64,000 nt of DNA. Origin: Candidatus Aminicenantia bacterium (lineage in GTDB: Bacteria > Acidobacteriota > Aminicenantia > Aminicenantales > Saccharicenantaceae). A program made the translations under genes and the position numbers. Shown here piece by piece: positions 21,180-32,269 of this stretch. Under the pieces are notes generated by a model. It searched no databases. It was not told the DNA's origin and worked only from the letters and a program-made list of their open reading frames with translations. The DNA is taken from assembly GCA_041479905.1 (NCBI GenBank), contig JBGOYY010000002.1, forward strand, positions 16,802 through 80,801, written 5' to 3'. Position 1 is the stretch's first letter; every line of letters starts with the position of its first letter.

Positions 21180-22880
21180 ATGATCGCCACAAAAGGGGCC
21201 GGGTTCGACGTCATCCTCGTCAGCGGAGAGCCCTATGCCGACCACCCGCTCTCGCCCGTCGGGATGATCGCCCGGGTGCTCGACGCCGAAGGATACACGG
21301 TCGGCGTCATCGAGTGCCCGGACTGGAAGGGGAAAGAGGATTTCCTCAAGCTCGGCCGGCCCCGGCTCTTCTTCGGCATCACCTCGGGCTCGATCGACAG
21401 CATGCTCGTCAACTACACGCCGCTCAAGCGGGAGAGGGCCGTCGACCCGAATGCGCCCTTCCAGTCGCGGATGCCGGATCGGGCCGTCATCGTCTACGCC
21501 AACCGGATCCGGGAGCTCCACAAGGGGGCGCGGATCGTCCTCGGCGGCATCGAGGCTTCTCTCCGGCGCTTCGCCCACTATGATTACTGGGGGGACGACG
21601 TCCGCCGCTCGATCCTCCTCGACACGCGGGCCGATATCCTCGTCTACGGGCCGGGCGAGCTCCAGGTCATCGAGATCGCCAAGCGCCTCGACCGGGGCGA
21701 AGGCCTCGACGGCATCCGGGGGACGTGCGTCATGCGGGCCGAGGCGCCCGAAGGGGCGCTCGTCATTCCCTCGTTCGAGGAGGTCAAGGCGGACAAAGAC
21801 AAGTTTTGCGAAGCGCAGAAGCGCCTCGCGAACCGGCGGGCGATCGCCCAGAAGCACGCCAACCGCTTCGTCGTCCAGTACCCGGCTCCGGATTACACGC
21901 CGGCCGACCTCGACCGGGTCTACGGCCTGCCCTTCACGCGCCGCATCCCGGAGGGCTTCCCCGAGCTCGGCATGGCCCGCTTTTCGCTCCAGACCCACCG
22001 GGGATGCGTCGGGCGGTGCTCCTTCTGCGCCCTGTCCCTCCATCAGGGCGACCGGATCGTTTCCCGCAGCGAAGACTCCATCCTCGAGGAGATCCGGCGG
22101 ATGACGAAGCACCCGGAGTGGCGCGGCTTCGTCGACGACCTGGGCGGGCCGACGGCCAACATGTACGGCATGGACCGGGCGGCGGCCGAGGTGCGCTGCG
22201 AGGGCGATGCGGAAGCGGATAGCGACCAAAAGGATAGAAAGCCGGAACGAGTCAAACGCGGGGTCGTCGAAGCGGCCCACCGCAGGCTCGTCGGACTGAT
22301 GCGCGCCGCCCGCAAGGTCCCTGGCGTCAAGAAGGTCTTTGTCCGGAGCGGCATCCGCTACGACCTGGCCCTCGAGAGCCCGGAGTACGTCCGGGAGCTC
22401 GCCCGCCACCACGTTTCGGGCCTTCTCAAAATTGCGCCCGAGCATGTCTCGGAAAACGTCCTGCGGCTGATGAACAAGAGCGGCGGCCGGCGGAGCCTCG
22501 AGGAGTTCCGGCGGATGTTCGCCGAGATGACCGTGGAGAAGGGCCCGGCGGGTTCGGGGAAGCGGGGGGGCGCGCCGCGACGCGGACGCTTGGCCGGCCG
22601 GCCCCAGCACCTCAAGTATTACTTCATGGTCGCCCATCCGGGGACGACCGATAAGGAAGCCCGCGAGCTCGCCGCCTTCCTCCGGGAGATCGAGGAAAGC
22701 GGGGAGAAGCCGGTCGAGGGCGTTCAGATCTTCACGCCGACGCCCATGACCCGCTCGACCTGCATGTACCACACGGGCAAGGATCCGCAGACGGGCGAGA
22801 GCGTCTACGTCCCGCGCCCCTACGCCGAGAAGAAGGCCCAGAAACGGATGTTGAATCCCCCTGCCGCTGACGACGATTAA
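21180..22880 (+). CDS. YgiQ (UPF0313) family radical SAM protein
   Basis: DVILVSGEPYADHP, SLRRFAHYDYW, RGCVGRCSFC, DLGGPTANMYG, SGIRYD, KIAPEH, FTPTPMT. Confidence 0.92.
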   Translation: MIATKGAGFDVILVSGEPYADHPLSPVGMIARVLDAEGYTVGVIECPDWKGKEDFLKLGRPRLFFGITSGSIDSMLVNYTPLKRERAVDPNAPFQSRMPDRAVIVYANRIRELHKGARIVLGGIEASLRRFAHYDYWGDDVRRSILLDTRADILVYGPGELQVIEIAKRLDRGEGLDGIRGTCVMRAEAPEGALVIPSFEEVKADKDKFCEAQKRLANRRAIAQKHANRFVVQYPAPDYTPADLDRVYGLPFTRRIPEGFPELGMARFSLQTHRGCVGRCSFCALSLHQGDRIVSRSEDSILEEIRRMTKHPEWRGFVDDLGGPTANMYGMDRAAAEVRCEGDAEADSDQKDRKPERVKRGVVEAAHRRLVGLMRAARKVPGVKKVFVRSGIRYDLALESPEYVRELARHHVSGLLKIAPEHVSENVLRLMNKSGGRRSLEEFRRMFAEMTVEKGPAGSGKRGGAPRRGRLAGRPQHLKYYFMVAHPGTTDKEARELAAFLREIEESGEKPVEGVQIFTPTPMTRSTCMYHTGKDPQTGESVYVPRPYAEKKAQKRMLNPPAADDD

Positions 22881-25519
22881 TCGGCGAGCTTGAACAGGGC
22901 CCGGAACCCCGGGTCTTTTCTGATGGGCAAGTAATCCGGCAGGATGACCGGAAAGAAGGGGTCTGAATAACCCTTATCCAAGGCCTTCTTCAGCAAGCCG
23001 ACGGCCTGCTCGGCCTGCCCAAGCTGGGCGTAGAGTCCAGCAAGATCGAGGAGGGCATGGGCGTCGTCGGCCGCGGCGGCCAGCGCCTTATTCAGATAGG
23101 CACGAGCTCCGCCGGCCTTTCCCGAAACCGCGTTCAGCATCCCGAGCAGGGGGTAGTAGTTCTTGGCGTTCAGCTTGCCCTTCCCGAGTTCCTTCAGCAA
23201 TGACGCTTCGGCCTCCGTTGCGACCTTCTTGGCCTCTTCCCGGTTCCCGGCCTCCTTGAGCGCCACGGCGAGGTCAAAGGCGTTAACCGCCGGATCGCCG
23301 GCCATCCCGCCTTGGGGTCCAAGTTCGGCGACCCGCCGATAGCAGGGCACCGCTTCGGCCGCCTTCCCCGCCGCGAGAAGCATGTGGGCGAGGTTGGGCA
23401 GGGCATAGGGGTGTCCGGGCTCGAGCTCGACGGCCTTCCGCAATTCTTTCTCTGCTTCCGGAAATTTCTCCTGGACCGCGAGAGTGTATCCCAGGATCGA
23501 ATGAGTGTTGGCCAATTCGGGGGCCATGGCCACATAGCGCCTGGCCGTCGTTTCCGCCGCCCGGATGTCTTTTTGAAAAAGGTTCTGGCAGTACCAGAGA
23601 TTGAGGAGGGGGATGGAATTGTGCGGGGCCAGCCCGGCGGCCTTTTCGAACATCGCCGCGGCCTCGTCGTAGCGGCCGAGGGACTGCAGGATCCTCCCGG
23701 CGTTGTTCCAGGCCGGCATGAAATCGGGATAGAGCTCCCGGAGCATGCGGTATTCCTCGAGCGCCCCGGCCGGGTCCTTGTCCACGAATTGTTTGTTCAC
23801 GGCCTTGAGCTTGAGCAGGTCGCGCGGCGGATAGTCCTGGGCTTCGGCGTTCTTCAAGGCCTGACGGAGCATCTCCTGGCCCTTCTCTTCCTGCCGCAGG
23901 AACTGGATCAAGAGGAGCCCCAGCGAGCCGCGGGCTTCGACGAATTCGGGGTCCTTTTCGAGGGCCAGCTCGAAGAACTTGGCCGCCTCCGGGAACTTGC
24001 TTTCCTGCCACCTGGCCAGGCCCAGGGAAAACTCTTTCAGGGCCTCCCAGGACGATGTCGTCACTTCGCTGACGGGCCTGTTGGCTTTTTCGATGCTGCG
24101 GATCGACTCGCCCAGCCGGGAGCGGAGCTTTTCGGACAGCGCGTCGATAGCCCGGAGAAGGACTTCCTCCCGGCCCTTGGCGGTGACGCGGATCCGGTCG
24201 ACGTGCCGGCGCTTGACCGGGTCGATGACGATGGCCTGGAGCTCGTAGGCGTCGCCGGCGGAAAGGATGCGCGGCAGGACGAAGGCTCGGACCCCGCCGA
24301 AGTGGCAGAGTTCGTAGCCGAGGGCCTCGTCGACCTTCGACGCGGGGTCCTTCCTCATCAGCCGCAGGGTTTCGCTGATCTGGGGCTTGTCGAAGATGGC
24401 CACGTAAGGCGACTGTTGCAGGGCGGCTTCGATGGCTGTCCGCAAGGCTAAGTCAAAGACTTGGTCGCCGGTGAGATTCTCGACGTCGGCCACCATGAGC
24501 TTATCGCGGTTCTCGAAGGCCAGCCCGGGCCGGCTGAGAAGCCAGACGGCGACCGCGACGGCGGCCAGGGAAAGCGCCCCGGCGGCGATCCAGACGGGTC
24601 TCGGCCGGCGGCGGAACGACAGCCTTTTCGCCGTCGGAAAAGCGCGGGCGCTCATCGCCTCTCTCAGACCGCGGAGCTCGCCGGCCATCTCCCGGGCTGA
24701 GGCGTATCTCTTGTCCGGGTCCTTGGCCAGGGCCTTGCGGATGACATGGGAGAGCTCGGCCGGGAAGCCCGGCCGCAAGTCCTTCGTCGGGCGGGGCTCG
24801 TCGTGAACGATGGCGTTGAGGACGGCCCGGTCGGTGTCGCGGCCGAAGGGGAGAGCGCCCGTTGCCATCTCGTAGAGGACGACGCCGAGCGACCAGACGT
24901 CCGTTCGGGCGTCGACCTCGTCGCCGCGAGCCTGTTCGGGGGACATGTAGGCCACCGTGCCCACGGTCGTCCCCGTGACGGTCATCCTGGCCTCGCCGGT
25001 GAGCTTGGCCAGGCCGAAATCGAGGATCTTAGCCAGCCCGTCGGAGGTGACCATGATGTTCCCCGGCTTGATGTCGCGGTGGACGATGCCGTACTCGTGG
25101 GCCTTGGCCAAACCCTCGCCGACTTCGGACGCGATCCTGATCGCCTCGACCGGCTCCAGGGCGCCGCGGCCGAGTTTGTCCTTCAGGCTTTCGCCCTGAT
25201 AGCAAGCCATGACGATATAGAGGCCGCCGTCCTCGGATTCGTCGACTTCGTGGATAGTGCAGATGTTTGGATGGTCAAGGCTCGACGCGGCCCGGGCTTC
25301 GTGGATGAAACGTTCGCGGGCTTCGGCGTCCGCGGTCAGTCCGGGCGGCAGGAACTTGAGGGCGACCGTCCGCTTGAGGCGGAGGTCCTCGGCCTCGTAG
25401 ACGACGCCCATGCCGCCCCGGCCGAGCTTGCGGACGATGCGGTACTTGCCGGCCACGGTCTGCCCGGGCTGGACCTCGGCGGCGGCAATTTTCAGTGTCC
25501 TGGTCGGGACATCCCCCAA
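22877..25519 (-). CDS. Membrane Ser/Thr protein kinase with extracytoplasmic TPR domain
   Basis: GRGGMG, HRDIKPGN, DFGLAK, YMSPEQ; TM; TPR-like repeats; TTG start after GGAGG. Confidence 0.92.
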   Translation of the reverse strand: MGDVPTRTLKIAAAEVQPGQTVAGKYRIVRKLGRGGMGVVYEAEDLRLKRTVALKFLPPGLTADAEARERFIHEARAASSLDHPNICTIHEVDESEDGGLYIVMACYQGESLKDKLGRGALEPVEAIRIASEVGEGLAKAHEYGIVHRDIKPGNIMVTSDGLAKILDFGLAKLTGEARMTVTGTTVGTVAYMSPEQARGDEVDARTDVWSLGVVLYEMATGALPFGRDTDRAVLNAIVHDEPRPTKDLRPGFPAELSHVIRKALAKDPDKRYASAREMAGELRGLREAMSARAFPTAKRLSFRRRPRPVWIAAGALSLAAVAVAVWLLSRPGLAFENRDKLMVADVENLTGDQVFDLALRTAIEAALQQSPYVAIFDKPQISETLRLMRKDPASKVDEALGYELCHFGGVRAFVLPRILSAGDAYELQAIVIDPVKRRHVDRIRVTAKGREEVLLRAIDALSEKLRSRLGESIRSIEKANRPVSEVTTSSWEALKEFSLGLARWQESKFPEAAKFFELALEKDPEFVEARGSLGLLLIQFLRQEEKGQEMLRQALKNAEAQDYPPRDLLKLKAVNKQFVDKDPAGALEEYRMLRELYPDFMPAWNNAGRILQSLGRYDEAAAMFEKAAGLAPHNSIPLLNLWYCQNLFQKDIRAAETTARRYVAMAPELANTHSILGYTLAVQEKFPEAEKELRKAVELEPGHPYALPNLAHMLLAAGKAAEAVPCYRRVAELGPQGGMAGDPAVNAFDLAVALKEAGNREEAKKVATEAEASLLKELGKGKLNAKNYYPLLGMLNAVSGKAGGARAYLNKALAAAADDAHALLDLAGLYAQLGQAEQAVGLLKKALDKGYSDPFFPVILPDYLPIRKDPGFRALFKLAD

Positions 25520-25593
25520 TTTCCCCTCCGATCAGCTGATGGGAAGGATAACAACTCCGGGGTCCGTAGTCAAATCCGGGCCTCGTCCGCAGC

Positions 25594-25638
25594 TTGACAG
25601 GCGCCGGCCGATAATATATGAATATATCTTCATATGAT
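25594..25638 (+). promoter_or_regulatory. Promoter with ArsR/SmtB-type operator
   Basis: TTGACA at 25594-25599; inverted repeat ATATGAA-N6-TTCATAT at 25616-25635 over the -10/start region. Confidence 0.7.
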
Positions 25639-25641
25639 GCC

Positions 25642-26985
25642 ATGAGTGAGAAAAAGTTCGCCTTGAGCATGCCGGAAGGAGCCGGACTCCTGGCTTATCT
25701 CGAGAAGGGCGAGATAGGCCCGGCCGGCGGCCGCACGCGTCCGGCCAAGGTCGTCCATGAGCTCCGCTTTGAGGAGGGACGGCTCGTCGTCCCCGGGGAA
25801 CTCGAGAAAAAGCTCGGCCTGGCCCCCGGCGCCCGCCTCGAGATCGTCACCGACCGTGGCCGCGTCGAGATCCTGCCCAACATCCACAGCTTGAATCGCC
25901 TCACCATCGAGCCCACCTCTCGCTGTAACCTGTCCTGCCGGACCTGCATCCGCAATACCTGGGAAGAACCCATGGGCGACATGGACATGAAGGTTTTCGA
26001 CCGGCTGGCCGGCCAGCTCGCCCGCTTCCCCCACCTCGAAACGGTCATGTTCGGCGGCTTCGGCGAACCGACAGCCCACCCGCGCATCCTCGACATGATC
26101 CGCGCCGTCAAGGCCCTGGGGCTCCGCGCCGAGATGACGACCAATGCGACCCTCCTCGACGATGCCTTGATCGACGGCCTGCTCCGCGAGCGTCTCGACA
26201 CCCTCTGGATCTCGCTCGACGGGACGACCGAAGAGAGCTTCGAAACGATCCGCGAGGGCGCGAGCTTCCCCCTCGTCCTCGAGAACGTCGAACGGCTCGG
26301 CCGGCGAAACGGCCGGGACGGCCACCGGATCGACATCGGCATCGCTTTCGTCGTCATGAAAACGAACCTCCACGACGTCAAGCACCTCGACCGCCTGGCC
26401 CGGTCCGTCGGGGCCCGCCGCATCCTTATCAGCCACGTCCTGCCGTACAGCGAGGCGATGGAAAAAGAGATGCTCTGCCTCCAGACGCTGACCCTCGAGA
26501 CGTTCACCTTCGCTCCCGGCAAGACGGAGCTCAGCCTGCCCCGGATCGACGTCAACAACACGACCAAGGAGACGCTTTTCAGCCTGCTCCAGGGGTTCGA
26601 GAACCTGACCTTCATGGGCAACAGGATCGCCGTCGACGCCCGCCGCTGCCGCTTCGTCCACGAACGTTCGTCGTTTGTCCGCTGGGACGGGAAGGTCGGT
26701 CCTTGCATGGGGCTCCTCCATTCCCACCGGACCTACCTTTACGGGCTCGAGCGGCGGGTCCGGTCTCACGCCTTCGGCGACGCGCGCGAGGGAGACCTCT
26801 TCGAGATCTGGAATTCGAAGGCCTACGCGGACTTCCGGGAGAAGGTCAAAGCCTTCGATTTCTCGCCCTGCCACGTCTGCGGCGGCTGTTCCATGCTCGA
26901 GTCGAACGAGGAGGACTGCTACGGGAACACTTTCCCGGCATGCGGCGGCTGCCTCTGGGCCCAGGGGGTCATCCAATGCCCGTGA
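25642..26985 (+). CDS. Radical SAM/SPASM protein with N-terminal AbrB-like domain
   Basis: GRLVVPGELEKKLGLAPG (AbrB-like), CNLSCRTC, GGFGEP, SPASM Cys cluster CHVCGGC...DC...CGGCLW. Confidence 0.88.
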   Translation: MSEKKFALSMPEGAGLLAYLEKGEIGPAGGRTRPAKVVHELRFEEGRLVVPGELEKKLGLAPGARLEIVTDRGRVEILPNIHSLNRLTIEPTSRCNLSCRTCIRNTWEEPMGDMDMKVFDRLAGQLARFPHLETVMFGGFGEPTAHPRILDMIRAVKALGLRAEMTTNATLLDDALIDGLLRERLDTLWISLDGTTEESFETIREGASFPLVLENVERLGRRNGRDGHRIDIGIAFVVMKTNLHDVKHLDRLARSVGARRILISHVLPYSEAMEKEMLCLQTLTLETFTFAPGKTELSLPRIDVNNTTKETLFSLLQGFENLTFMGNRIAVDARRCRFVHERSSFVRWDGKVGPCMGLLHSHRTYLYGLERRVRSHAFGDAREGDLFEIWNSKAYADFREKVKAFDFSPCHVCGGCSMLESNEEDCYGNTFPACGGCLWAQGVIQCP

Positions 26986-27359
26986 AAGACGTCGTCCGGA
27001 TCTTCAAGGCCCTGGCCGACCCCGCCCGGTTGCGGATCATGATCCTTCTCGGGCGTCGGGAGCTCTGCGTCTGCGAGATCATGTTCGTCCTGGGCATGGA
27101 GCAATCACGGGTGTCCCACCACATGCGCGTCCTGCGGGACGCCGGCATCGCTGAGGACGTCCGCGAGGGACGGTGGATCATCTACCGGATCCCGGAGGCC
27201 TCGCGCGGCCTCGTCGAGGGCCTCTTCGCCGGCGCGCTCCGGGAACGGATCGAGGGCTCCGGCGAGACGGCCGCCGACGCCCATAAGCTCGAGGCCTGCG
27301 TCCGGGAAAACATCCGCGGCCGTGTCTGCGAAGCGCGCCCCCGATTGGAGGGACAGTGA
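26982..27359 (+). CDS. arsR: ArsR family metalloregulator
   Basis: FKALADPARLRI, ELCVCEI, SRVSHHMRVL, REGRWIIY; GTG overlaps the upstream TGA. Confidence 0.9.
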   Translation: MKDVVRIFKALADPARLRIMILLGRRELCVCEIMFVLGMEQSRVSHHMRVLRDAGIAEDVREGRWIIYRIPEASRGLVEGLFAGALRERIEGSGETAADAHKLEACVRENIRGRVCEARPRLEGQ

Positions 27360-28204
27360 AGAAAACGATCCTCTTTATCTGCGTTCACAATTCTGCCCGA
27401 TCCCAGATCGCCGAGGGCCTGGTCAACGCCCTTTATGGAGACAGGTTTCTGGCCTCGAGCGGCGGGACGATGGCCACGAAGGTCCATCCCGGGGCGATCA
27501 AAGCCATGGCCGAGATCGGCATCGACATCAGCGGGCACCGATCGAAGAGCATCGACGTGTTCGAAGGCCAGCGCTTCGATCATGTCGTGATGGTCTGCGA
27601 CGATAAGCAGTCGGATTGCCCGTTCTTCCCCGGCGGCAAGGACTATATTCACCACGCCTTCGACGACCCGGCGGCCTGCAAAGGAACGGACGAGGAAGTC
27701 CTCGCCTGTTTCCGCCGCAGCCGCGACGAGATCCGCGCTTGGATCGAGGAGACGCTCATCGATCAAATCTTGGAACTCGCCGTCGATAAATTCCTGTTCC
27801 GATTTCCGGCCGACCTCTACTACAGCGAGGCCGGGATCTGGGTGAGATTCGAGGGATCACGGGCGCGCATCGGGCTTTCCGATTTTACCCAGCAGAGGAA
27901 CGGCGACGTGGCCTTTGCCGAGCCGAAAGAGGTGGGGACTCAGGTCCGGTTGGGGGACGAGGTGGCCGTCGTCGAGACGATCAAGGTCAACCTCAGCATC
28001 CCCTCGCCCGTGGGGGGGAAGGTCATCGAAGTCAACAACGATCTCTTGACCGCTCCCGAGCTCGTCAACCAGGACCCGTACGGGAAGGGCTGGCTGGCTA
28101 TCCTCGAGGTCGAGGAGAGCGAAACGGCGCGCCGAGCTTTGAAGACGGCGGCCGGCTATCTGGCACTGGCCAAGGTCCAGGCGGAGGCGGAGGTCGCGCG
28201 ATGA
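27356..28204 (+). CDS. arsC: Fusion of arsenate reductase (LMW-PTP type) and glycine cleavage H-protein-like lipoyl domain
   Basis: CVHNSAR P-loop, VCDDKQSDCP redox pair, FDDP; then ARIGLSDF, VETIKV (lipoyl-Lys position), SPVGGKVIEVN, VNQDPYGKGWL. Confidence 0.88.
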   Translation: MKKTILFICVHNSARSQIAEGLVNALYGDRFLASSGGTMATKVHPGAIKAMAEIGIDISGHRSKSIDVFEGQRFDHVVMVCDDKQSDCPFFPGGKDYIHHAFDDPAACKGTDEEVLACFRRSRDEIRAWIEETLIDQILELAVDKFLFRFPADLYYSEAGIWVRFEGSRARIGLSDFTQQRNGDVAFAEPKEVGTQVRLGDEVAVVETIKVNLSIPSPVGGKVIEVNNDLLTAPELVNQDPYGKGWLAILEVEESETARRALKTAAGYLALAKVQAEAEVAR

Positions 28205-28620
28205 GCGGAACGCGGCGCAAGATCCCCGTCGTCCCCTGCAGCGGGATCGGGAAAAGCCTCGGAGCCGCGGCCCGGGAAGCGGCCTTTGTCCTTGCCGAGG
28301 ACCTCCGTCCCGACAAAACGAAGATCGTCGCCCTTTCCCTCCTCGTCCTGGGGGACGAAGAAGCACGGCGCGAAGTCGTGGGACGCAAGGCCGTCGCCAT
28401 CGACGGCTGTAAGCTCGAGTGCGCCGCTAAAGGGCTAGCTTGTTCGGGCGCCTCAAAGGTCCACAAAGTCGCCGTCTTCGATGTCGTCCGGCGCCATCGC
28501 GGCCTAAAGCCCGAAGGCGTTTGCGACCTCAACGAGGACGGTCTGATACTGGCCCGGGCGACGGCCGATGAGGCCGCGAAGATCGTCGATAACGTCGACG
28601 CGGAGGGCGGCCATGCCTGA
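28201..28620 (+). CDS. DGC domain (putative zinc-binding) protein
   Basis: PCSG...AIDGCKLECA. Confidence 0.85.
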   Translation: MSGTRRKIPVVPCSGIGKSLGAAAREAAFVLAEDLRPDKTKIVALSLLVLGDEEARREVVGRKAVAIDGCKLECAAKGLACSGASKVHKVAVFDVVRRHRGLKPEGVCDLNEDGLILARATADEAAKIVDNVDAEGGHA

Positions 28621-29065
28621 CCTGCCGAGAAAGAAAATCGGTCTGATCGCCTGCTCCGGCGAGGAGCTCGCCGAGGGCACGGTGACCCGCAGGGCCGTCC
28701 GGAAAGTGCTCGAGACTCTCCGGCCCGACGACGCCGTAACGCTGTGCCTGCCGCTGTTCCTTGCGGGAGGCGAGGGAGAACGGGCCTTCGCCCGCCACTA
28801 TCCGACCATCGCCGTCGACGGGTGCGATAAACGGTGCGCCGCCCTGGCGACGGAGAAGTATAGCGCCAAGCCGGCCGCGAGCATCGTCGTGACGGAGATC
28901 GCGAAGGAAAGCGGCTGCGGGGCGATCGGCACGGCGCGGAGGCTGAACGAAAATGGGCAACGGCTCGCTGAGACTGTCGCCGAGAAGATCGTGGAGGAAA
29001 CGGACCGGCTGTTGAAGAGAAAGCCAAAGGATGCAGGACGCGCGGCCGGCAGGGAGAAGCGCTGA
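28613..29065 (+). CDS. DGC domain (putative zinc-binding) protein
   Basis: ACSG...TLCL...AVDGCDKRCA; RBS GGAGGG. Confidence 0.85.
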   Translation: MPDLPRKKIGLIACSGEELAEGTVTRRAVRKVLETLRPDDAVTLCLPLFLAGGEGERAFARHYPTIAVDGCDKRCAALATEKYSAKPAASIVVTEIAKESGCGAIGTARRLNENGQRLAETVAEKIVEETDRLLKRKPKDAGRAAGREKR

Positions 29066-29514
29066 TGGCCAAAACCGAACTCTACGAAACCTCCGTGAGT
29101 TGGACGGGCGGCCACCGGGGCCATTTGAAGTTCGGCAACGGCCCGGAGATGGACTTCTCCGCGCCGCCGGCTTCGCATGGCGAGGCCGGTGTCCTCACCC
29201 CTGAGGACGCGTTCGTCGGTGCCGTCAACACCTGTGTCATGCTGATGTTCATCTGGGCGGCCGAGCGCTTCCGGCTGGACCTTGTCTCTTATGAGTGCCG
29301 GGCCGAGGGCACGAAGCTCATCGAGCTCGACCGGACGGAGATATTCACGACGGTCGTTTTGCGGCCCCGCATCGCCGTGCGGGCCGGGAATGGGCCAAAA
29401 GAAGCCGTCGAAAAGCGGATCCGCCGGGCGCTCGAATCAGCGCAAAAATTCAGCCTCGTCGCCAACTCCGTCAAGAGCAAGGTCATCATCGAACCGGAAA
29501 TCGTGATCACTTGA
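29065..29514 (+). CDS. OsmC/Ohr family protein
   Basis: [18 protein letters not shown]; the second Cys position reads QKFSLVANS. Confidence 0.82.
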
Positions 29515-29525
29515 AGGGAATTGCC

Positions 29526-30572
29526 GTGAAGAGAAACATGCGCCTCAAGTTCTTCGACAGATACCTGACCCTCTGGATCTTCCTGGCTATGGCCGTCGGC
29601 GTCGGCCTGGGCTACCTCGTCCCGGCCGTCGTCGGTTTCATCAACAAATTCCAATCGGGGACGACCAACATCCCTATCGCCATCGGGCTCATCCTGATGA
29701 TGTATCCGCCCCTGGCCAAGGTGAAGTACGAGGAACTCGGCGATGTCTTCAAGAACGTCAAGGTCCTGACGCTATCCCTCGTCCAGAACTGGGTTATCGG
29801 GCCGCTCCTGATGTTCGCCCTGGCCGTCCTTTTCCTGCGCGACAAGCCCGAATACATGTACGGCCTGATCTTGATCGGCCTGGCCCGCTGCATCGCCATG
29901 GTCATCGTCTGGAACGACCTGGCCCAGGGGGACCGGGAGTACGCGGCCGGACTCGTCGCCTTCAACTCGATCTTCCAGGTGCTGTTTTTCTCCGTCTATG
30001 CTTATATCTTCATCACCGTCTTCCCGACTTGGCTCGGCCTCAAGGGGACGGCGGTCAATATCACCATCCGCCAGATCGCCGAGAGCGTCTTCATCTATCT
30101 CGGCATCCCGTTCCTCGCCGGGCTCATCACGCGCTTCAGCCTGCTTAAGCTCAAGGGCCGGACGTGGTACGAAACGAAGTTCATCCCGCGCATCAGCCCT
30201 ATCACCCTCATCGCCCTGCTCTTCACCATCATCGTCATGTTCTCGCTCAAGGGCGAGTTCATCGTCAAGATCCCGCTCGACGTCCTGCGCATCGCCGCCC
30301 CGCTCCTCATTTATTTCGTGGTCATGTTCCTCGTCTCGTTCTTCTTGAGCCGCAAGGCTGGCGCGGACTACCCCAAGGCGGCGACACTCTCGTTCACCGC
30401 GGCCAGCAACAACTTCGAACTCGCGATCGCCGTGGCCGTGGCCGTCTTTGGTATCAATTCGGGCGAGGCCTTCGCGGCGGTCATCGGTCCGCTCGTCGAG
30501 GTCCCGGTCATGATCGGCTTGGTCAACGTGGCGCTCTATTTCAAGCGGAAGTATTTCGCGAAACCGGTCTGA
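29526..30572 (+). CDS. acr3: ACR3 family arsenite efflux transporter
   Basis: [45 protein letters not shown]. Confidence 0.95.
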
Positions 30573-30706
30573 GGGCGGATCCGGAAGCGGAGGCGTTCCC
30601 TGCGGCCAGGGCCTGGTCGTCAGGGAGCCGGGTCTTATCGTCGAGACTTATGGGTCTATTATAAACCTTGAAATCCCCGCTGCAAATATCGAATAATGGC
30701 CTGAGC

Positions 30707-32269
30707 ATGGAAGACATCGCCAAGGGCGTCCGCTCCTTCACCGCCGGCACGGCGGTGAGCCGGGTCATGGGCCTCTTGCGGGAGATGGTCTTCGCCCACC
30801 TGTTCGGCGCCAGCCAAAGCGCCGCCGCCGACGCGTTCAACGTCGCCTTCCGCATCCCGAACATGCTCCGGGACCTCTTCGCCGAAACGGCGCTTTCGGC
30901 CGCCTTCATCCCGGTCCTGACGAGCGAGCGGGCCAAGGGCAAGGAATTCCAAAACCGCCTGGCCTCGAACATCTTCAACGTCCTGATCATCGTGACGGGC
31001 ATCGTCTCCGTCGCCGGCCTCCTGGCCTCGCCCCATCTCGCCAAGTGGATCGCCTTCGGATTCGGCAAGGTGCCGGGCAAGATCGGCCTGACCGCCCAGC
31101 TGACGGCCGTCCTTTTTCCCTTCCTGATCGTCGTCAGCCTCGGCGCCTGGGCCATGAGTTATTTGAACACGGAAAAGTCGTTCTTCGTGCCGTCGGTCGC
31201 CCCGGCCCTTTTCAACGTTTTTTCGATCCTCGTCCCGGTCCTGACCTACGGCTGGTACGTCTCGCACGGCAAGGAGCCGATCTTCGGCATGGCCATCGGC
31301 GTCCTCGTCGGGGGCCTGATGCAGTTCCTGTTTCAGATGCCGCTCGTCTTCAAGAAGGGCTTTCGCTACAGCTTTGTCATCAGCTTCCGCGACCCTGAGT
31401 TTCGCCGGGTCCTGACCCTCTTCGTTCCCGTGGCCATCGGGCTCGCCGGGCCGCGGATCAACGTCCTCGTCAACACGATCCTGGTGACGCCCTTGAAGCA
31501 GGGAAGCGTCAGCTGGCTGAATTACGCCTACCGGATCATGCAGCTCCCCCTGGGATTGTTCGGTGTGGCCGTCGGGACGGTGACTCTCCAGTCGCTATCC
31601 CGCATCGTCCTGGACAACGACGTCGTGGCCGTCCGCTCGAGGCTGACGGATTCGCTGAAGATGGCCCTTTTCCTGACGGTCCCGACGTCCGTCCTGATCG
31701 CGTTCCTCTCCCGCCCGGTGACGCGCGTCATTTACCAGAGAGGGCACTTCCGGCCCGAAGACACGCTGCCCACGGCCGTGGCCCTCGTCCTCTACACGCT
31801 GGGCATCCCCTTCATCGCCGGCCTGCGGAACGTAGCCGCGGTTTACTACGCGTACAAGGACGCGAGGCTGCCTATGTACGCCAGCCTCGTCTCCGTCGCC
31901 CTGACGATCGCCCTCAACGTTTCGCTCATCGGGGTCCTAGGGTTCATGATCTTTCCATTATCGACGAGCCTGGCCGCGGCCCTCAATTTCTGGCTCCTCG
32001 TCGGCTTCCTCCCGAAGAAGATCGGCAAGTTCGAGATGCGACCGCTCGGCCGCTATTTCGCCTCCCTGACCGCCGCGTCCGTCATCGGCGGCGCGGCGGC
32101 CTGGTTCAGTAATCAGATTTTCATCAAGTGGCTGGGGGCCGGGTTCCTTCCCGCCCTCGCCGGCGTCATCGCCTGCGGCCTCCTCGGGCTGGCCGTTTTC
32201 TATGGCGCATCGCGTCTCCTCGGGATGACCGAAACTCGCGACTACCTCCGCCGCTTCCTTCGCCGCTGA
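30707..32269 (+). CDS. murJ: Lipid II flippase MurJ
   Basis: SRVMGLLRE, DAFNVAFRIPN, LFAE, YAYRIMQLPLG, YQRGHF. Confidence 0.93.
   Translation: MEDIAKGVRSFTAGTAVSRVMGLLREMVFAHLFGASQSAAADAFNVAFRIPNMLRDLFAETALSAAFIPVLTSERAKGKEFQNRLASNIFNVLIIVTGIVSVAGLLASPHLAKWIAFGFGKVPGKIGLTAQLTAVLFPFLIVVSLGAWAMSYLNTEKSFFVPSVAPALFNVFSILVPVLTYGWYVSHGKEPIFGMAIGVLVGGLMQFLFQMPLVFKKGFRYSFVISFRDPEFRRVLTLFVPVAIGLAGPRINVLVNTILVTPLKQGSVSWLNYAYRIMQLPLGLFGVAVGTVTLQSLSRIVLDNDVVAVRSRLTDSLKMALFLTVPTSVLIAFLSRPVTRVIYQRGHFRPEDTLPTAVALVLYTLGIPFIAGLRNVAAVYYAYKDARLPMYASLVSVALTIALNVSLIGVLGFMIFPLSTSLAAALNFWLLVGFLPKKIGKFEMRPLGRYFASLTAASVIGGAAAWFSNQIFIKWLGAGFLPALAGVIACGLLGLAVFYGASRLLGMTETRDYLRRFLRR

Follow-up and report, generated by a model that had tools for sequence, protein, structure and literature searches.

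An arsenate reductase joined to a lipoyl-carrier domain inside a conserved ars-operon cassette of Candidatus Aminicenantia

A stretch of 64,000 bp from a Candidatus Aminicenantia bacterium (GenBank assembly GCA_041479905.1, contig JBGOYY010000002.1, positions 16,802 to 80,801; hereafter the window) was analysed around one open reading frame (ORF) of 282 aa, in which an arsenate reductase, ArsC, is continued by a lipoyl-carrier domain. It is an ArsC with a novel covalent dithiol partner, encoded inside a conserved and undescribed ars module. The carrier domain, here called GcvHL, is a paralogue distinct from the H protein of glycine cleavage (GcvH), and together with two DGC-domain proteins and an OsmC-like protein it forms a cassette of constant gene order. 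Judged from the sequences, the working that we tentatively favour is a lipoyl-dithiol relay induced by arsenic, whose arm may re-reduce ArsC as one client.

The fusion protein

In an earlier reading made from the letters of the window (the sequence-only reading), the ORF was described as a frame with all three ArsC cysteines, followed by an H-protein-like domain that keeps the lysine of the lipoylation position. Pfam, alignments and Foldseek confirmed this description. Pfam placed LMWPc, the low-molecular-weight phosphatase (LMWP) domain, at residues 5–109 (3.2e-15) and GCV_H at residues 154–270 (1.1e-30). The corresponding NCBIfam models, arsC_pI258_fam (TIGR02691, residues 5–131) and gcvH (TIGR00527, residues 150–271), both matched below their equivalog cut-offs, with 109.6 against 174.3 bits and 105.4 against 115.85 bits, respectively; a second GcvH equivalog comparison gave 112.7 against 117. 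The closest solved relatives were Bacillus subtilis ArsC (1jl3) and the Thermus thermophilus H protein (1onl).

Residues 3–131 aligned with residues 4–132 of 1jl3, an offset of +1, by which C9, C81 and C88 correspond to Cys10, Cys82 and Cys89. Because of this offset, C9, R15, C81, C88 and D104, each at least 90% conserved among 91 aligned sequences, represent the catalytic set of thioredoxin-coupled ArsC. The fusion thus shares the LMWP fold, the CX5R P-loop and the equivalents of Cys10, Cys82, Cys89 and Asp105 with the ArsC proteins of Staphylococcus aureus pI258 and B. subtilis, and differs from them in its added C-terminal lipoyl carrier and in its score short of their equivalog cut-off. 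In the carrier, the lipoyl-site lysine of the VETIKV motif is K210 (K71 of the domain); it was aligned with the lysine of the genome's canonical GcvH, and its equivalent is invariant in 78/78 GcvHL members.

An AlphaFold2 (AF2) model of the fusion, built with the alignment of these 91 sequences, had a mean predicted local distance difference test (pLDDT) value of 90.3 and a predicted template modelling score (pTM) of 0.62. Foldseek matched the model to GcvH 1onl with a TMt of 0.93 and to ArsC 8p5n with a TMt of 0.87, the values for the two ArsC structures 1jl3 and 8p5n being 0.81–0.87. The ORF is therefore a genuine two-domain protein, consisting of a three-cysteine ArsC of LMWP fold and a lipoyl-carrier domain. 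Secondary structure assigned to the model with DSSP showed the last ArsC helix (residues 112–135) almost abutting the first carrier strand (138–143), and the modelled connector comprises only 2–4 residues, practically no linker, in agreement with the very short linker of the sequence-only reading. The Shine-Dalgarno-like GAGGAG that had been pointed out at the linker is present at 27746–27751; it merely represents the I-E-E codons of the ArsC helix, and the nearest in-frame start-like codon after it, TTG at 27770, lies 18 nt downstream, which is poor Shine-Dalgarno spacing.

The domain-architecture search that had been proposed as a check was carried out on 5.8 billion proteins. At least 41 fusion proteins with both Pfam domains were present among the 120 matches listed, originating from JGI, ENA, NCBI and Logan assemblies; P0001–P0040 were 92–66% identical to the query and P0046 was 45% identical. 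The proteins were named by their sources as 'arsenate reductase', 'biotin/lipoyl-containing protein' or 'hypothetical'. Among carrier-like proteins longer than 252 aa, 40/45 were ArsC fusions, and the remaining five were recognised on reading as frame-shifted read-throughs or chimeras.

An indel or stop at the junction, which had been raised as a possibility, was not borne out. Logan contigs from X3 and X4, two runs belonging to other studies, span positions 27650–27852 and 27643–27830 with 0 differences, a contig of ~90% likeness from an RNA library (X23) crosses the junction without a gap, and no indel near the junction was reported in the compared run contigs. The X23 contigs were taken as presence in an RNA library, not as proof of transcription, and neither the word shares of RNA runs (X23, X24: 0.08) nor habitat labels were used as evidence. 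That the junction is an artefact of assembly or sequencing, or a pseudogene, has a negligible probability: some related loci of metagenome-assembled genomes are indeed frameshifted (L029 and L030, two frame-disrupted members of the 11 split loci treated below, and the proteins P0121, P0123 and P0124), whereas the window's junction recurs identically in the X3 and X4 contigs and gap-free in the divergent RNA-library contig, around 40 independent clusters have the same architecture, and what separates the fused from the split forms is a clean deletion with no frame error. The fusion is not an assembly artefact.

Further architectures were met among the search results. P0121, P0123 and P0124 were considered as GcvHL-DGC fusions and rejected as out-of-frame read-throughs with long Arg/Pro/Gly-rich stretches; P0125, considered as an Lpd-GcvHL fusion, was rejected for the same kind of read-through and merely hints at further adjacency of the genes for dihydrolipoyl dehydrogenase (Lpd) and GcvHL. 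The 303-aa 'ArsC' hits with 65% coverage were not divergent carriers and proved to be tandem ArsC-ArsC proteins. Two of these tandem proteins are P0056 and P0060, for which one source names Bathyarchaeia, and in their first ArsC copy a Cys-rich insertion replaces the usual Cys82-Cys89 loop. P0044 and P0047 (258 and 255 aa) are single-ORF gene calls of ArsR and ArsC in close relatives, either real fusions or read-through over an overlapping stop and start as at 27356–27359 of the window.

The carrier family and its cassette

The carrier domain is a paralogue apart from GcvH. The window's genome has a canonical gcvT-gcvH-gcvP cluster on another contig (C3), whose GcvH scored 148 bits and is 30% identical to the GcvHL domain. 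When 201 genomes of the same class were scanned with a GcvHL profile, 19 genomes gave 184–242 bits and all other hits, canonical GcvH, remained at or below 118 bits. Within the window's genus GcvHL was detected in 8/17 genomes and is therefore accessory. The family has an invariant N-terminal strand motif, D5-K6-F7-x-F9, as a family-specific extension, a median pI of 4.56 with a net charge of -9, and no cysteine in 72/78 members; such acidity and lack of cysteine are attributed to acceptors of canonical ligases in part of bioRxiv 10.64898/2026.10.01.755906.

The absence of gcvT, gcvP and lpd nearby, claimed by the sequence-only reading, held: Lpd-family matches were confined to other contigs, C16 and C37 among them, with none on the window's contig (C2), and neither gcvT nor gcvP was found among the ORFs of 24–32 kb, the whole window not having been scanned separately for extra copies. 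Genes for gcvT and gcvP were also lacking among the 45 most widespread gene families listed for the neighbourhoods of 80 GcvHL loci. These neighbourhoods weigh against a spare H protein, that is, a GcvHL that replaces the As(III)-sensitive GcvH under arsenic or donates lipoyl for the re-lipoylation of poisoned enzymes. In some bacteria GcvH serves to relay lipoyl groups, and GcvHL is acidic like GcvH and scores just below both GcvH equivalog cut-offs; its coupling to DGC and OsmC-like genes throughout and its family-specific N-terminal extension are further points against such a role, which we consider very unlikely.

In comparison with GcvH, GcvHL shares the fold, the lipoyl-lysine hairpin and the acidic surface, and differs in its sequence, its extra N-terminal strand motif and its DGC and OsmC-like partners in ars operons. 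The H-protein paralogue GcvH-L of Streptococcus pyogenes (PDB 5a35) was matched by Foldseek at 1.4e-7 with a TMt of 0.85, at 23% identity only. It belongs to a stress-linked operon with macrodomain and sirtuin partners and no arsenic link, whereas GcvHL is tied to ars operons. GcvH paralogues that serve as dedicated lipoyl carriers outside glycine cleavage have been described with LbpA of sHdr sulfur oxidation (PMC6067878, in part), and a characteristic conserved cysteine and a basic surface are given for LbpA in part of bioRxiv 10.64898/2026.10.01.755906. Set against these descriptions of LbpA, GcvHL is likewise a GcvH paralogue recruited as a lipoyl carrier, and is unlike it in being Cys-free in nearly all members and acidic. 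We noticed no Hdr genes in the set of frequent neighbours at the 80 GcvHL loci.

These loci were obtained by scanning one genome per species, 185,579 species in total, by domain alignment; 157 relatives were found and the best 80 loci were kept, and the window's proteins were compared with them by tblastn, on which the counts of Table 1 rest. According to the record titles, the loci belong to Aminicenantes/Acidobacteria, Terriglobia, Anaerolineae/Chloroflexia and one 'delta proteobacterium'. The order GcvHL-DGC1-DGC2-OsmC-like was constant, mostly with overlaps of 0–4 bp, and nearly every locus carried ars genes (Table 1). Where the OsmC-like gene was missing, the contig is short; the DGC genes are lacking in L048, and the two loci without ars genes are short or cut. 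The same order was seen in 18 further GcvHL-bearing metagenome contigs. GcvHL-DGC-DGC-OsmC-like is thus a conserved, translationally coupled ars-operon cassette opened by GcvHL and nameless in every library scanned, and a search of full-text literature, with subscription journals and supplements outside its scope, returned no paper in which ArsC or ars operons are connected with an H-type or lipoyl protein.

Table 1. Features of the operon in the window and their occurrence at the best 80 GcvHL loci
Feature	Position	Strand	Loci	Remarks
Radical SAM/SPASM protein	25618..26985	+	35/80	First operon gene; Pfam Radical_SAM + SPASM; homologues on the same strand
ArsR-family repressor	~26973..27359	+	74/80 (upstream, same strand in 64)	Pfam HTH_5 3.2e-17; ELCVCE motif in translation; start uncertain
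ArsC-GcvHL fusion ORF, 282 aa	27356..28204	+		GTG start
ArsC domain, residues 1–135	27356..27760	+	45/80 (arsC)	LMWP fold; P-loop C9-x5-R15, C81, C88, D104
Junction, residues 136–139	27761..27772	+		DSSP of AF2 model; comparison with split relatives
GcvHL carrier domain	27773..28204	+		Pfam GCV_H; lipoyl-site K210 codon 27983–27985
DGC-domain protein 1 (DGC1)	28201..28620	+	79/80	Pfam DGC 5.7e-12; start overlaps fusion stop
DGC-domain protein 2 (DGC2)	28613..29065	+	79/80	Pfam DGC 7e-17; likely start ATG 28613
OsmC-like protein	29065..29514	+	78/80	Pfam OsmC 1.4e-8
ACR3-type arsenite efflux permease	29532..30572	+	52/80 (acr3)	Last operon gene; Pfam SBF 8.2e-62
At least one ars gene (arsR, arsC or acr3)			78/80	

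In the window, these genes form a single compact operon on the + strand (25618–30572), in which neighbouring genes share a few overlapping bases; the GTG at which the fusion ORF starts overlaps the stop of arsR. The longest ORF of DGC2 begins at 28568, and the ATG given in Table 1 was favoured, its Met being conserved. A scan of 25400–30800 for promoters and terminators gave none on the + strand inside the operon, with a terminator count below that of shuffled sequences, and was uninformative. The operon is bordered by a Ser/Thr protein kinase with tetratricopeptide repeats (22877–25519, -) and the lipid II flippase MurJ (30668–32269, +), with no mobile-element genes directly at its borders despite the patchy distribution of the cassette in the genus (8/17 genomes).

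The two DGC proteins are rich in conserved cysteines. DGC1 has three that are invariant, C13 (in CSGIGK), C70 (in DGC) and C74, and DGC2 has four. An AF2 model of a long DGC2 homologue (pLDDT 85.3) had no Foldseek match in the PDB at E<=1e-3, the best being lumazine synthases (1.4e-2, TM ~0.25–0.38), and would represent a generic flavodoxin-like alpha/beta sandwich only. Likewise, a phmmer comparison of DGC2 with the PDB sequences yielded 0 hits at E<=1, and a protein atlas search returned only DGC clusters named 'zinc-binding protein family'. At most non-Aminicenantes loci (e.g. L054:6853–7584), DGC2 is prolonged at its C-terminus by ~100 aa that include a conserved Cys-x-Cys; the window's DGC2 lacks this extension, which has a confident AF2 fold and no Pfam or NCBIfam match. 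A complex prediction of DGC1, DGC2 and the GcvHL domain (score 0.01, mark 0.32) was not used either way. In the OsmC-like protein, C57 is invariant (75/75) and occupies the peroxidatic position, being aligned to the cysteine of Ohr 6mjn and to those of 2d7v and 2onf; C78 is also invariant.

The radical SAM gene, whose end overlaps the arsR start, had its top NCBIfam match in TIGR04317 (299.5 bits, under the cut-off of 380) and resembles 'tungsten cofactor oxidoreductase / metalloenzyme maturases'. At 7/35 of the loci bearing a homologue, its tblastn match ends no more than 150 nt upstream of gcvHL. Candidate substrates of this enzyme are the carrier or the DGC proteins.

Origin and history of the fusion

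Fusion states were read at 24 Aminicenantes-type loci (L007–L030) of 68–93% identity. The two genes were fused at 8/24, separate but abutting or overlapping at 11/24, and at 5/24 arsC was not adjacent, so that arsC was fused to or immediately upstream of gcvHL at 19/24; the fused state was seen at 0 of the remaining 56 loci. Adjacency of arsC to gcvHL was also seen at L040, L083 and L100. In split species, the ArsC tail (e.g. ...GEKEKR, followed by the stop) overlaps the start of the carrier, and fused species lack about 10 residues. Between the start of arsC and the first aligned codon of the carrier lie 417 nt in the window versus 443 nt in L008. From these comparisons, the fusion arose from adjacent, overlapping arsC and gcvHL genes through a deletion of ~26 nt.

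The genomes showed two types of junction. P0046 adds a third, longer type, which is taken from its protein record alone, the metagenome scan having missed its own contig. In L100, the nearest full-length relative of P0046, arsC and gcvHL are adjacent but separate. A tree of the cassette, built from its four proteins with ArsC and the junction left out (quick search, SH-aLRT support only), requires at least four changes of fusion state, and places the window and L007 nested within a well-supported clade of unfused loci. The fusion is thus recurrent and retained.

These results divide the claim of the sequence-only reading that the fusion might be a recent accident of two adjacent genes. The origin stands, with split genes at 11/24 loci and a deletion of ~26 nt; the accident does not, since fused forms extend down to 66% and 45% identity, with at least four changes of state and two to three junction types. 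It had also been stated that separate genes in close relatives would speak against the fusion having a function. Such relatives do exist, at the same 11/24 loci, but since their two genes remain neighbours in one orientation, a functional link is not refuted.

A neutral fusion would be one in which overlapping neighbour genes were welded just because a small deletion suffices; ArsC would keep thioredoxin as its reductant, and the carrier would serve the DGC and OsmC-like proteins, for example in an arsenic-induced, lipoyl-dependent defence against peroxide or disulfide stress. The split state is as common as the fused one (11 versus 8 of 24), a ~26-nt deletion across an ATGA-type overlap is enough to join the genes, all three thioredoxin-type cysteines are kept, a thioredoxin is encoded in the genome, and the cassette is independent of arsC at many loci. 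We nevertheless regard a neutral fusion as unlikely, given that fused forms have been kept across deep divergence (66% and 45% identity), that the fused state arose or changed several times, and that in several lineages arsC lies directly upstream of gcvHL and not at its other ars-operon positions.

A proposed lipoyl relay and its alternatives

In the sequence-only reading, a tethered lipoyl arm was suggested either to re-reduce the ArsC disulfide or to capture the As(III) product; the gene context leans towards a redox relay. In the lipoyl-dithiol relay that we favour, K210 would be lipoylated by the housekeeping ligase and LipA, and the lipoyl group would be held as a dithiol by Lpd and NADH, or possibly by the Cys-rich DGC pair. 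In this arsenic-induced thiol relay, the dihydrolipoyl arm would provide the dithiol in protein-bound form; it would re-reduce the C81-C88 disulfide after each arsenate reduction, replacing thioredoxin or acting beside it, and may also serve downstream cysteine proteins, namely the OsmC-like protein and, where present, an AhpD-like one. The relay is the most economical reading because of the Lpd, AhpD-like and OsmC-like neighbours, the lipoylation machinery and the existence of ArsC-thioredoxin fusions.

To describe the neighbours, a census of all ORFs at the best 80 loci was followed by family scans. A bona fide Lpd (TIGR01350, 504 bits, above the cut-off) lies directly upstream of gcvHL at 7/80 loci, and AhpD-like CMD proteins are encoded downstream at 15/80, in six cases with an overlap onto the stop of the OsmC-like gene. 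Lipoylated proteins together with Lpd and NADH reduce AhpD and the OsmC/Ohr disulfides, and thioredoxin or glutathione cannot reduce the OsmC/Ohr disulfide in such lipoyl-dependent systems, as reported in part of PMC8945050. The GcvHL cassette resembles these systems of Lpd, lipoylated protein and AhpD/Ohr/OsmC peroxidase in its inventory, with a lipoyl protein at 80/80 loci, an OsmC-fold protein at 78/80, and Lpd and AhpD-like proteins at the counts given above. It is unlike them in that the donor is a dedicated H-type carrier, stand-alone or fused to ArsC, and not an E2 subunit, and in having two DGC proteins, a relocated second cysteine in the OsmC-like protein and control by ArsR.

LipA (358 bits) and Lpd are encoded in the window's genome, as is an LplA/B-type ligase recognised by its LplA-B_cat domain. 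The fused ArsC is the only recognisable arsenate reductase of this 94% complete genome, which gave one strong LMWP match and no hit to PF03960. Fusions of ArsC with thioredoxin were found in P0102 (Trx + LMWPc) and P0107 (Thioredoxin_3 + LMWPc) from precomputed Pfam assignments, and are therefore a precedent for an ArsC fused to its reductant. The window's protein is like them in the covalent joining of ArsC to a dithiol redox partner, and unlike them in that this partner is a lipoyl carrier and not a CxxC protein.

The census further gave ArsM at 11 loci, a membrane thioredoxin at 21, CcdA at 22, a PF04060 Fe-S protein at 16 and cysteine desulfurase at 8. In most Aminicenantes loci, the OsmC-like gene and acr3 are separated by genes for a membrane-anchored thioredoxin and for a thiol transporter of CcdA/DsbD type (e.g. 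L013:7781–9238); the window's operon has neither. The PF04060 'putative Fe-S cluster' protein of ~178 aa (e.g. L062:9930–10466) lies downstream of the cassette and resembles the N-terminal part of the gamma subunit of acetyl-CoA synthase.

Several observations weigh against a relay that works through the fusion. As close relatives keep arsC and gcvHL unfused at 11/24 loci, the covalent tether is dispensable. With a connector of 2–4 residues and a pTM that is low against the pLDDT, the arrangement of the two domains is not confidently predicted by the model. The seven Lpd-adjacent loci are all Anaerolineae-type records, and thus kin rather than independent cases. The genome also has a thioredoxin (123.5 bits) and a thioredoxin reductase-like gene, so that the classical route is available to ArsC. 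At 35/80 loci, tblastn detected no arsC within ~6 kb; the cassette exists without it, and the re-reduction of ArsC therefore cannot be the core job of the cassette. In the OsmC-like protein, a serine occupies the canonical resolving-cysteine position of 2d7v and 2onf, and by pairwise alignment an invariant H17 takes the position of the Ohr catalytic arginine (roles of the catalytic Arg and Glu of Ohr: PMC5962072, in part). Finally, a dihydrolipoyl arm ranks among the prime targets of As(III), and this is as compatible with a binding role as with a redox one.

An alternative is As(III) capture and hand-off, in which the reduced arm would bind arsenite, coming from ArsC or entering the cell, as a cyclic dithioarsinite and pass it via the DGC and OsmC-like proteins to ACR3. 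Dihydrolipoyl groups are a textbook high-affinity ligand of As(III), and the ArsD chaperone, which serves ArsA, is a parallel for such a hand-off. The cassette is controlled by ArsR and often adjoins acr3, its occurrence without arsC at 35/80 loci fits an As(III)-centred role, and the three and four invariant cysteines of DGC1 and DGC2 are numbers typical of As(III) sites; moreover, a DGC protein of unassigned function is found in another ars operon, one without GcvHL (bioRxiv 10.1101/2022.10.17.512643, in part). On the other side, stoichiometric binding protects little unless the arsenite is handed off, the adjacency of Lpd, AhpD-like and OsmC-like proteins is a signature of catalytic redox cycling and not of metal trafficking, and in the Foldseek comparison of the DGC2 model with the PDB, the DGC fold did not resemble any known metallochaperone. 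Capture and hand-off is accordingly judged somewhat unlikely. The wider proposition that the lipoyl-carrier/DGC/DGC/OsmC module drives a thioredoxin-independent ArsC powered by Lpd and NADH or by DGC, and/or shuttles As(III) to ACR3, is judged less likely than not.

The established reductants of arsenate reductases fall into three classes, namely thioredoxin, glutaredoxin/glutathione and mycothiol/mycoredoxin. If the lipoyl relay is true, an ArsC coupled to a lipoyl protein would constitute a fourth class, in which Lpd connects the reduction of arsenate with NADH. Arsenic resistance would then have taken as its tool the protein-bound dihydrolipoate that is classically a victim of arsenite, with the ArsC-GcvHL fusion as its Rosetta stone. 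All components are small and soluble, and the hypotheses are directly testable in Escherichia coli. The orphan DGC domain (PF08859) gains a defined genetic context and a testable partner. The cassette is carried by uncultured anaerobes (Aminicenantes, Terriglobia, Anaerolineae) that are abundant in peat, soil and sediment, and in these habitats the speciation of arsenic matters for groundwater.

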